This document shows positions 13,806 to 15,285 of a stretch of 64,000 bases of DNA, in pieces. This stretch comes from Escherichia phage EF202P1, in the sequence record OP172796.1; one strand, written 5' to 3'. The translations under genes and the position numbers were made by a program. Positions within the stretch are counted from its first letter, which is position 1; every line of letters begins with the position of its first letter. A model generated the notes under the pieces. That model ran no database searches and was not told where the DNA came from. It saw only the letters and a program-made list of their open reading frames with translations.

Positions 13806-13883
13806 GGGAGATTGACGGTAATTGGTAAACCTACCATCCTTAGAAGTTGGTGTTTGAGGGTTCGAATCCCTTGTCTCCTACCA
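13806..13883 (+). tRNA. tRNA with Leu-type anticodon (TAG) but short variable arm
   Basis: Acceptor GGGAGAT/GTCTCCT, anticodon loop CTTAGAA, T-arm GAGGG-TTCGAAT-CCCTT, A73, CCA. Confidence 0.5.
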
Positions 13884-13890
13884 AATTAAT

Positions 13891-13966
13891 GCAGGTGTAG
13901 CAAAATGGTTATGCGGCTGACTCTTAATCAGTAAGACGATGGGTTCAATTCCCTCCACCTGTACCA
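13891..13966 (+). tRNA. tRNA-Lys (anticodon CTT)
   Basis: Acceptor GCAGGTG/CACCTGT, anticodon loop CTCTTAA, T-loop TTCAATT, A73, CCA. Confidence 0.65.
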
Positions 13967-13972
13967 AACAAT

Positions 13973-14048
13973 GGGGTCATAGTTTATATGGTTAAAATTC
14001 GAGTTTTGCAAACTTGGGAACTGAGTTCAATTCTCAGTGACTCCACCA
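13973..14048 (+). tRNA. tRNA-Ala (anticodon TGC)
   Basis: Acceptor GGGGTCA/TGACTCC gives a G3:U70 wobble (Ala identity element); anticodon loop TTTGCAA; T-arm CTGAG-TTCAATT-CTCAG; A73; CCA. Confidence 0.65.
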
Positions 14049-14054
14049 ATTAGT

Positions 14055-14129
14055 GCATCCATAGTTTAAACGGGAAAATTACAGTCTTCCAAACTGAGGT
14101 TGAGGGTTCGATTCCCTCTGGATGCTCCA
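14055..14129 (+). tRNA. tRNA-Gly (anticodon TCC)
   Basis: Acceptor GCATCCA/TGGATGC, anticodon loop CTTCCAA, T-loop TTCGATT, U73, CCA. Confidence 0.65.
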
Positions 14130-14136
14130 AATTAAT

Positions 14137-14212
14137 GCTCCTATCGTATAATTGGCTATTACGGTTGCCTTGTAAGCAACTTATCAGGGTTCGAATCCTT
14201 GTGGGAGCACCA
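14137..14212 (+). tRNA. tRNA-Thr (anticodon TGT)
   Basis: Acceptor GCTCCTA/TGGGAGC, anticodon arm GTTGC-CTTGTAA-GCAAC, T-loop TTCGAAT, CCA. Confidence 0.7.
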
Positions 14213-14216
14213 ATTC

Positions 14217-14302
14217 AGAGGTCAAGTGAAAGACCGCTGGTGTCAACTGAAGACCGTAACAAATTCCACGGAGTTGAGTTAGCGGCACAACTTCAGACCT
14301 CT
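14217..14302 (+). ncRNA. structured non-tRNA element closed by AGAGGTC/GACCTCT helix, with a degenerate GAAGACCGT motif
   Basis: 7-bp closing helix, internal CTGAAG/CTTCAG and CCGCT/AGCGG pairings; no T-loop. Confidence 0.35.
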
Positions 14303-14307
14303 TTCAT

Positions 14308-14382
14308 ACTCGCTTAGTTTATATGGTAAAACATCACCCTTACAAGATGAAGAAAAAGGTTCAAGTCCTTTAGTGAGTACCA
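14308..14382 (+). tRNA. tRNA-Val (anticodon TAC)
   Basis: Acceptor ACTCGCT/AGTGAGT, D-arm GTTT-ATATGGTA-AAAC, anticodon loop CTTACAA, T-loop TTCAAGT, A73, CCA. Confidence 0.6.
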
Positions 14383-14383
14383 T

Positions 14384-14461
14384 GTTCCAGTATCCCAATT
14401 GGCAGAGGATGCAAGCTCAAACCTTGTACTAGTGACGGTTCGAATCCGTCTTGGAACACCA
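14384..14461 (+). tRNA. tRNA with Leu-type anticodon (CAA) but short variable arm
   Basis: Acceptor GTTCCAG/TTGGAAC, anticodon loop CTCAAAC, T-arm GACGG-TTCGAAT-CCGTC, A73, CCA. Confidence 0.5.
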
Positions 14462-14466
14462 ATTTT

Positions 14467-14542
14467 GCAGGATTAGTTCAAAGGGATAGAGCAACAGTCT
14501 ACGAAACTGTTAATAGGGGTTCGAATCCCTTATCCTGCGCCA
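14467..14542 (+). tRNA. tRNA-Arg (anticodon ACG)
   Basis: Acceptor GCAGGAT/ATCCTGC, anticodon arm ACAGT-CTACGAA-ACTGT, T-arm AGGGG-TTCGAAT-CCCTT, G73, CCA. Confidence 0.7.
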
Positions 14543-14562
14543 ATTTTAAAGAGGCTATTTAG

Positions 14563-15120
14563 ATGAGATATTTGAAGTATGCTTCATGGATTTTCTTAGC
14601 TTTGTTAGAGCCATTTGCAGCAATCTTAGCAGTTATCTTAGCACCTTTCGTAGTTCCATTCTACAGTGAGAAGAAAGGACATCTCCCTTTTGGATTCAGA
14701 TGGATGGAGACATATGATAACCCAATTGATGGTGATGAAGGCCACGTTAAAAGATGGGCTAAGATTAGAAAGATTGGTAAGCTTGGTGTCTATATGCAGA
14801 GAGTTGGTTGGCTCTGGAGAAACAAAGCTTATAACTTCTCTTACCATGTGTTAGGAAGAGATGTAAAAGATGTTACTAAGTGGAAAGGCAATATCAATGT
14901 AAGTTCTAACCCTGAAGATAATCAGACAGGTTATCTCCTAATGTGGAACAGTAATGCTTGGGGATTATTCGCTTTTGTACCATCAATTAAAATCTTTGGT
15001 AAACAATTCTACTGGAGAATTTATGTTGGGTGGAAACTTAAAAGTGTTGTCCCAGAAGAAAGAGCATTCTCAAGGGAAAGAGTTATGTTGGCATTCTTTA
15101 TTCATCCACTAAGAAAATAA
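14563..15120 (+). CDS. hypothetical membrane-anchored protein (185 aa) embedded in the tRNA cluster
   Basis: N-terminal hydrophobic stretch WIFLALLEPFAAILAVILAPFVVPF; Trp-rich; AGAGG RBS. Confidence 0.65.
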   Translation: MRYLKYASWIFLALLEPFAAILAVILAPFVVPFYSEKKGHLPFGFRWMETYDNPIDGDEGHVKRWAKIRKIGKLGVYMQRVGWLWRNKAYNFSYHVLGRDVKDVTKWKGNINVSSNPEDNQTGYLLMWNSNAWGLFAFVPSIKIFGKQFYWRIYVGWKLKSVVPEERAFSRERVMLAFFIHPLRK

Positions 15121-15128
15121 AGATTTAA

Positions 15129-15204
15129 AGGGGATTAGTTTACAAGGTTAAAACCTCGGTCTTTGAAATCGAAGAAGTTGGTTCAATTCCAACATCCCCC
15201 GCCA
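15129..15204 (+). tRNA. tRNA-Gln (anticodon TTG)
   Basis: Acceptor AGGGGAT/ATCCCCC, anticodon loop CTTTGAA, T-arm GTTGG-TTCAATT-CCAAC, G73, CCA. Confidence 0.6.
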
Positions 15205-15206
15205 AT

Positions 15207-15285
15207 GCTCCATTACTCCAATTGGCAGAGAGGCCAGACTTAAAATCTGTGTTATGTATCGGTTCGAATCCGATATGGAGTACCA
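15207..15285 (+). tRNA. tRNA with Leu-type anticodon (TAA) but short variable arm
   Basis: Acceptor GCTCCAT/ATGGAGT, anticodon loop CTTAAAA, T-arm ATCGG-TTCGAAT-CCGAT, A73, CCA. Confidence 0.5.

Follow-up and report, generated by a model that had tools for sequence, protein, structure and literature searches.

The 64,000-nucleotide (nt) stretch of Escherichia phage EF202P1 that we analysed (record OP172796.1; hereafter the window) carries a cluster of tRNA genes on its + strand, three of which have leucine anticodons and encode tRNAs without the long variable arm. These class I tRNA-Leu genes bear the anticodons UAG (13806..13883, 78 nt, anticodon at 13841-13843), CAA (14384..14461, 78 nt, anticodon at 14418-14420) and UAA (15207..15285, 79 nt, anticodon at 15241-15243), the lengths counting the encoded CCA. 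ARAGORN labels them Leu(tag), Leu(caa) and Leu(taa) at these coordinates on the + strand, and Infernal assigns all three to the Rfam tRNA family RF00005, in which membership denotes a cloverleaf above the gathering score of 29: the scores are 40.0 bits for UAG, 43.6 for CAA and 47.5 for UAA, with E-values of 1e-7 to 1e-10. The two independent detectors concur on all three genes, and the ARAGORN cloverleaves and Infernal alignments place the same 7-nt anticodon loops, CUUAGAA in the UAG tRNA, CUCAAAC in the CAA tRNA and CUUAAAA in the UAA tRNA. An error of anticodon register, which an earlier sequence-only reading of the window had allowed for, is thereby removed. Each tRNA ends in A73 followed by an encoded CCA (for UAG, under the ARAGORN register discussed below).

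Taking the anticodon and T stems as 5 base pairs (bp) each, and in agreement with the lengths in the Infernal alignments, we find variable regions of UGUUU in the UAG tRNA (13851-13855, 5 nt), ACUAGU in the CAA tRNA (14428-14433, 6 nt) and GUUAUGU in the UAA tRNA (15251-15257, 7 nt). With 5, 6 and 7 nt and no stem, these fall outside class II, which is defined by a variable region of more than 10 nt with a stem-loop; they have the form of type I tRNA-Leu, in which a Leu anticodon goes with a short variable loop, unpaired and some 5 nt long, nucleotide 48 included. Three other tRNAs of the same cluster, all on the + strand, do have long stem-loop variable arms and served as class II comparators: tRNA-Ser(UGA) (13460..13549, 90 nt), tRNA-Ser(GCU) (16308..16400, 93 nt) and tRNA-Tyr(GUA) (11671..11758, 88 nt). 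The sequence-only reading had described three Leu-anticodon tRNAs with A73 and 5-7 nt variable regions next to two long-armed tRNA-Ser, and both parts of this description were reproduced, the coordinates and loops exactly by ARAGORN and the lengths by Infernal; automated folding with ARAGORN returned the same anticodons and no class II structure. We conclude that the three Leu genes are genuinely short-armed and have a class I shape.

Leucine identity in Escherichia coli resides in A73, the A15-U48 pair, G18G19, A20a and tertiary pairs linking the D loop to the T loop, and the E. coli leucyl-tRNA synthetase (LeuRS) needs neither the anticodon nor the long arm, arm-less variants remaining active (PMC9976931). 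To locate these elements, the three window tRNAs were compared arm by arm with leuZ, leuX and leuW of E. coli K-12, the tRNA-Leu of phage T4 and the tRNA-Leu(UAG) of phage T5. Positions 8-26 occupy 20 nt both in the class II Leu comparators and in the window's CAA and UAA tRNAs, with a shared layout of U8, a purine at position 9, a 3-bp D stem, an unpaired base, A14 A15 Y Y G18 G19 Y A R A, and the returning 3 bp; the window D loop takes the form N-AAUUGG-Y-A-R-A. The D stem is UCC/GGA with the D loop CAAUUGGCAGA in the CAA tRNA and CUC/GAG with the D loop CAAUUGGCAGA in the UAA tRNA, so that G18G19 lie in an 11-nt D loop on a 3-bp stem, together with A20a, exactly as in leuX and leuZ. The UAG tRNA has the same D loop and one additional nucleotide 5' of the stem. 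U8, A14, A15 and U48, the last nucleotide of the variable region, occur in all three tRNAs (the UAG numbering allowing for the insertion), and from these bases we infer a U8-A14 and an A15-U48 pair in each. The T loop, UUCGAAU throughout, can form U54-A58, G18-U55 and G19-C56, and the UAG and UAA tRNAs share a G1.U72 pair. By this comparison with the E. coli, T4 and T5 tRNA-Leu, the phage tRNAs carry the whole known identity set of E. coli LeuRS, the missing part being only the arm that the enzyme does not read.

A second test left out the anticodon itself. With the anticodon arm and variable region removed, the window tRNAs were compared with 1,799 phage and E. coli tRNAs, and tRNA-Leu made up 21 of the 25 nearest neighbours of the CAA tRNA, 20/25 for UAA and 14/25 for UAG, against a Leu background of 15%. 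No homolog with a non-Leu anticodon or a discriminator other than A was found among the relatives or in the class I set from IMG/VR described below. For the homologous tRNAs of the related phage Sf14, tRNAscan-SE isotype models rank Leu top, with Leu scores of 67.4, 49.1 and 60.2 (Sf14 tRNA study, 2025; PMC12482277). These results support the view that the three are true Leu-type tRNAs, class I only in shape. The sequence-only reading had left two options, unusual Leu isoacceptors or tRNAs charged with another amino acid; the first agrees with Leu character in every other feature tested, and the second found no homolog of the kind it would lead one to expect. That the tRNAs read Leu codons and are charged with another amino acid is, in our estimate, barely credible: it has in its favour just the atypical class I shape and the close scores of the Sf14 UAG homolog (Leu 67.4 against Ile2 65.7; PMC12482277), whereas the tRNAs are without the elements that published identity rules (PMC9976931) attach to other amino acids, namely G3.U70 (alanine), G-1 (histidine), U35 (tyrosine, lysine and glutamine), C35 (arginine), C36 or U36 after A35 (valine and isoleucine), G34 (phenylalanine) and a long arm (serine). 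A73 and a Leu-type core are present, the masked nearest neighbours are Leu, and recoding of about half of the Leu codons would damage every phage protein.

The genes themselves are already known, with tRNA-Leu annotations in hundreds of records. The tRNA region of the window is 94-98% identical to that of Felix O1-like phages of E. coli, Salmonella and Shigella (Ounavirinae, Felixounavirus): 406 phage records match a 5.6-kb query from this region, 206 of them covering most of it, and all three genes are labelled tRNA-Leu in Felix O1 and many relatives. The CAA tRNA recurs at 97-100% identity in about 250 Ounavirinae records and the UAA tRNA at 99% identity or more in 215 phage records. In comparison with Felix O1 itself, the UAA tRNA is identical, the CAA tRNA is one base apart, and the UAG tRNA departs from its counterpart at one D-arm base and in the anticodon stem. 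Origin from the host was considered for the UAA tRNA and rejected, a blastn search of 5,426 complete E. coli genomes giving no match even at E = 10. In the 2010 genome paper on Felix O1, the three appear as Leu(TAG) (Cove score 52.2), Leu(CAA) (46.2) and Leu(TAA) (57.9), and Leu[TTA] is counted there with the codons that benefit from phage tRNAs. The word 'variable' is absent from the main text of that paper and of the Sf14 study (PMC12482277), and neither, therefore, comments there on the absent arm.

The UAG tRNA has several irregularities, and these weigh against regarding it as a working gene. Its D arm has a single additional nucleotide on the 5' side (in the 8-13 region; C in the window, U in Felix O1), its anticodon stem in the window contains a U.U mismatch, its Rfam score is the lowest of the three, and it is labelled 'Pseudo-TAG' in one record (a tRNAscan pseudogene call) and 'tRNA-OTHER' in another. 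Infernal favours a start one base later, at 13807, with U as discriminator. We rejected this register, which breaks the N73-CCA pattern of nearly every tRNA in the cluster and leaves unexplained a natural variant among Felix-like contigs in which U72 is replaced by C and G1.U72 becomes G1-C72; the ARAGORN register (G1.U72, A73, CCA) is preferred because it puts A73 directly before CCA and because the U72-to-C variant then improves pairing. The anticodon stem occurs in three versions in Felix-like contigs (CCAUC/GUUGG, UCUCG/CGAGA and CCUCG/CGAGG), with paired compensatory changes at three of the five positions and no mismatch in two of the three versions, and the remainder of the tRNA is constant apart from the U72-to-C change and the inserted base, which is C or U. 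Such a pattern of variation is that of a gene selected for its fold and not that of a pseudogene. We thus assign a very small probability to the view that one or more of the genes, most plausibly UAG, is a degenerating pseudogene that the cluster still carries: the 'tRNA-Pseudo-TAG' and 'tRNA-OTHER' labels in two records, the extra D-arm nucleotide, the U.U mismatch and the score of 40 bits speak for it, but it would have to accommodate the compensatory stem versions, an acceptor stem, T arm, A73 and CCA that are invariant bar the pairing-improving change at position 72, the original Felix O1 analysis, which scored the UAG gene at 52.2 without any flag, and the ranking of Leu as top isotype for the Sf14 homolog (PMC12482277).

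The anticodon loop of the phage UAG tRNA (CUUAGAA, 13839-13845) has A37, as does the class II Leu(UAG) of T5 (L004). In the host tRNA-Leu(UAG), leuW, this position is instead G37, the m1G37 site. Across class I phage tRNA-Leu of any anticodon, the commonest loop frame is C32 U33 ... A37 A38.

Short tRNA-Leu are not confined to the close relatives of EF202P1. Three other isolates encode tRNA-Leu of class I length that have the same D arm together with U48 and A73: Erwinia phage phiEa21-4 (Ounavirinae), Aeromonas phage AhP_Mru1 (Demerecviridae) and Lactobacillus phage LpeD (Herelleviridae). A first scan of IMG/VR, whose bait joined, at class I spacing, a D loop of Leu type to an NAR anticodon and a T loop (G18, G19, C20, A20a and A22 fixed, position 21 restricted to G or U), gave at least 120 loci, in which ARAGORN identified at least 168 tRNA-Leu of 73-79 nt with all six Leu anticodon types. 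Because this pattern is biased, we recounted on tRNAs that do not match the bait and on a sample obtained with a generic bait. Among the matches listed, the 164 distinct class I tRNA-Leu have A73 in 99%, A14 in 98% and A15 with U48 in 95% of cases, and the 49 that are off-bait have 96% for each of the three, compared with 54%, 87% and 34% in the contigs' other class I tRNAs. The Ser and Tyr tRNAs of these contigs stay long, among the matches listed, with the exception of unusually short tRNA-Tyr of 73 and 80 nt on the viral contigs L078, L010 and L026; the latter suggest that the Tyr arm is occasionally reduced in phages too.

Folding of the single window sequences did not recover the cloverleaf as the minimum-free-energy structure, and z-scores were weak. 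The class I cloverleaf is strongly backed by covariation. In a gap-free alignment of 63 sequences sharing a 74-nt class I cloverleaf, excised by ARAGORN structure so that the counts lean towards it, 98.1% of pair cells are standard, a very large margin over the 58.4% left after shuffling and the 34-45% left after sliding the partner, and two-sided changes occur at 19 of the 20 pairs. A set of 177 sequences gave 97.9% standard pairs.

The second scan of IMG/VR was less biased, its bait being a generic T arm followed by CCA, and its counts are those of a sample, not totals. Among the matches listed, 15 of 59 distinct tRNA-Leu are no longer than 80 nt (10 of 47 off-bait), the variable region measures 8 nt or less in 14 of the 58 tRNA-Leu that could be parsed (about 24%), and its lengths form a continuous series of 5, 6, 7, 9, 10, 11 and up to 19 nt; short forms were found in none of 42 tRNA-Ser and none of 15 tRNA-Tyr. 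The statement of the sequence-only reading that phage tRNA-Leu are normally class II thus describes the majority of the viral-contig sample and misses about a quarter of it, which is class I. The IMG/VR sample (L252-L364) also contains two subtypes of the D arm, one with A9 and C13 (UA-GCC-C-AAYUGGCAGA-GGC), a type to which the window's CAA and UAA tRNAs conform, and another with G9 and G13 (UG-ACG-G-AAUUGGUAUA-CGU), nearer to class II tRNA-Leu, a hint that class I forms may have arisen more than once.

A scan of bacteria with the same pattern, restricted to one genome per species, returned among the matches listed (L129-L248) tRNA-Leu genes that for the most part occur singly on the chromosomes of Actinomycetota, among them Gordonia, Nocardia, Mycobacterium, Amycolatopsis, Arthrobacter and Bifidobacterium. 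The anticodons of these bacterial class I-length tRNA-Leu, in the same matches, are UAA, CAA, UAG or CAG; a few of the genes belong to Planctomycetota, Acidobacteriota and Elusimicrobia, and some loci hold 9-29 tRNAs in 8 kb. Short tRNA-Leu in Actinomycetota therefore extend well beyond Streptomyces coelicolor, the species considered below.

We propose, with a probability of about 0.8, that the three genes encode functional class I leucine tRNAs, which the host LeuRS would charge and which would act as isoacceptors for UUA, UUG and CUA. They would be transcribed within the Felix O1-type cluster, processed to ends that already bear CCA, and charged with leucine through A73 and the core, given that E. 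coli LeuRS reads A73 and an elbow and core shape set by U8-A14, A15-U48, the placement of G18G19, A20a and the T-loop pairs; since these elements are all present, the arm would be dispensable. In decoding, the UAA tRNA would serve UUA and UUG, the CAA tRNA UUG, and the UAG tRNA CUA and possibly more of the CUN codons. The phage makes heavy use of these codons: in 40 long open reading frames (ORFs) of the window, whose G+C content is 39%, TTA makes up 25.6%, TTG 14.0% and CTA 11.2% of Leu codons; in E. coli, UUA and CUA belong to the minor codons. Charging by a synthetase of the phage itself was also considered and set aside: the five largest window ORFs (663-909 amino acids) correspond to a tape measure protein, a tail fibre, a DNA polymerase, a primase-helicase and a ribonucleotide reductase, with no synthetase among these five, a survey that leaves about 24 kb of the genome outside the window.

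Published work on charging provides the main arguments against this proposal. In the closest experimental precedent, E. coli LeuRS, an enzyme described there as charging type II only, did not accept the type I tRNA-Leu(CAA) of S. coelicolor (PMC6614811), a result that speaks against easy charging. A separate study reports a preference of the enzyme's leucine-specific domain for large variable loops and an invariant U20 in E. coli tRNA-Leu, a position that is C20 in two of the phage tRNAs; because of the large-loop preference and C20, these tRNAs may be charged less efficiently than those of the host. The Streptomyces failure, in our interpretation, may reflect C48, with which that tRNA is without the A15-U48 pair needed by E. 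coli LeuRS, whereas the phage tRNAs keep both A15 and U48. Taken to its end, the objection would have the tRNAs made and then poorly charged, or not charged at all, by enterobacterial LeuRS, and acting as decoys for tRNA-targeting enzymes or as processing signals in a polycistronic transcript. We hold this to be quite improbable. The failure on the Streptomyces tRNA and the 'type II only' description (PMC6614811) are what one would expect from it, as is the preference of the leucine-specific domain for large variable loops, but the E. coli identity set is intact and includes the A15-U48 pair that the Streptomyces tRNA does not have, the presence of all six Leu anticodon types in class I forms with conserved anticodon stems and loops fits a role in decoding, codon use fits the three anticodons, and arm-less E. 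coli tRNA-Leu variants are active (PMC9976931).

If the three tRNAs are charged isoacceptors, the loss of the arm is most simply explained as reductive evolution under relaxed constraint, in which the arm would disappear where the synthetase can dispense with it (Leu) and persist where the synthetase depends on it (Ser and Tyr). The long arm is a binding site for seryl-tRNA synthetase and for bacterial tyrosyl-tRNA synthetase. Bacterial LeuRS can do without it (PMC9976931). Relaxed constraint predicts short tRNA-Leu, a continuum of Leu arm lengths and no short tRNA-Ser or tRNA-Tyr in the less biased sample, as seen. The arm might alternatively have been lost for an advantage, class I tRNA-Leu evading anti-phage or toxin enzymes that recognise class II tRNAs through the long arm, while still being charged by LeuRS. 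This account, which we consider unlikely, is compatible with functional, host-charged leucine tRNAs and alters only the reason for the loss. Phages from several families without close relationship commonly have short-armed Leu tRNAs, and the two D-arm subtypes among class I forms suggest repeated origins, both of which would suit an adaptive loss, and the abortive-infection toxin AbiEii has been reported as likely preferring class II tRNAs. The Ser and Tyr tRNAs of the same phages nevertheless keep their arms and so stay exposed, the same short form is the normal chromosomal gene in many Actinomycetota, and the continuum of arm lengths is expected from simple relaxed constraint. We are similarly doubtful of a broader version, according to which arm shedding would be a widespread, selected phage strategy against class II-targeting enzymes and E. 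coli LeuRS would charge natural type I tRNAs that keep A15-U48.

The cluster in which the three genes lie extends over 11178..16480 on the + strand and comprises 25 tRNAs by ARAGORN, all on that strand and many spaced by 1-10 nt, with one more found by Rfam at 12783-12861. The three Leu genes belong to closely packed runs, in which 1 nt separates tRNA-Val from Leu(CAA) and 2 nt separate tRNA-Gln from Leu(UAA). The additional Rfam tRNA (+) scores 31.7 bits, just over the gathering score, and ARAGORN is silent there; relatives have an annotated tRNA-Arg in the matching gap, and an Arg(TCT) is present in Sf14. Another gap without tRNAs, at 11842-12301, contains a T-arm-like hairpin at about 12074-12094 (+; GCGAAGGTTCGATTCCTTCAC), which the terminator scan reported on the - strand and which may be a remnant of a tRNA gene. 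Promoter-like sites upstream of and within the cluster (11031-11059, 11122-11151 and 12550-12578) and a terminator-like hairpin 3' of it (16643-16660) are consensus matches only, and in this promoter and terminator scan matches were no more frequent than in shuffled sequence. Glu(UUC) (11262-11339) and Leu(CAA) (14384-14461) have the 5' acceptor strand GUUCCAG in common, and their 3' acceptor strands are nearly alike (CUGGAAC and UUGGAAC, respectively).

Protein genes adjoin and interrupt the cluster. Immediately upstream lies an ORF of 471 amino acids (9596-11011, +) that carries the domains DUF2828 and DUF7788 and weakly matches von Willebrand A, labelled 'RNA-binding protein' or 'vWFA protein' in relatives. 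Genes for a DUF7338 protein (14563-15120, +) and a DUF7217 protein (15509-16306, +) separate the tRNA sub-clusters, and the annotation of relatives gives their homologs two transmembrane domains each. HNH endonuclease genes occupy varied points of the cluster in other relatives.

In a full-text literature search that did not extend to most subscription journals, we found no paper noting arm-less tRNA-Leu in phages. In the literature searched, then, both the possession of type I tRNA-Leu by enterobacterial phages whose hosts have class II only and the commonness of such tRNAs across phage families are undescribed, although a prior description is possible. Type I tRNA-Leu as a kind is known already, from animal mitochondria and from one study of Streptomyces. 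A short-armed phage tRNA-Leu contradicts a general statement of current reviews (PMC9976931). In textbooks the long arm is near-universal. A classical coliphage family with three arm-less Leu tRNAs offers a natural test of enterobacterial LeuRS on type I tRNA-Leu, and of which core elements, such as U48, decide acceptance by the enzyme. The finding also matters for annotation, such genes being sometimes labelled as pseudogene or 'tRNA-OTHER', and for the design of compact or orthogonal Leu tRNAs.

Further points of reference are the class II tRNA-Leu of the host and of other coliphages. E. coli leuZ, leuX and leuW and the T4 and T5 tRNA-Leu share with the window tRNAs the Leu anticodons, A73, U48 and a standard T loop, and the 20-nt D region of the E. 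coli, T4 and T5 molecules has the same 3-bp stem and AAYYGG-Y-A-R-A loop; leuZ also has the G1.U72 of the UAG and UAA tRNAs. They differ in the variable region, which is a stem-loop of 13-15 nt in tRNAs of 85-87 nt in all (87 nt in T4 and 85 nt in T5), compared with 5-7 unpaired nucleotides in the 78-79 nt of the window tRNAs, and in position 20, which is U in E. coli tRNA-Leu and C in the CAA and UAA tRNAs of the window.

Among bacteria, the type I tRNA-Leu(CAA) of S. coelicolor is the sole studied exception and has been presented as rare. It is charged by its own LeuRS, and the minimum variable-loop length for good charging is 5 nt (Fan et al., 2019; PMC6614811). Its variable loop, ACAGC, gives it C48 where the phage tRNAs have U48, and the S. 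coelicolor LeuRS relies on C74 and not on A73 (PMC6614811). The tRNA-Leu of animal mitochondria share a short variable region with those of the window and use A73 and A14 as identity elements (PMC9976931); they are organellar, have their own LeuRS and often a loosened core, whereas the phage tRNAs keep the canonical bacterial elbow of D and T loops. Arm-less tRNA-Leu engineered from E. coli (Larkin et al., 2002, as summarised in PMC9976931) keep A73 and the tertiary pairs linking the D loop to the T loop and, in the review's summary, are still leucylated and edited by E. coli LeuRS; those molecules are laboratory constructs, whereas the tRNAs of the window are natural.

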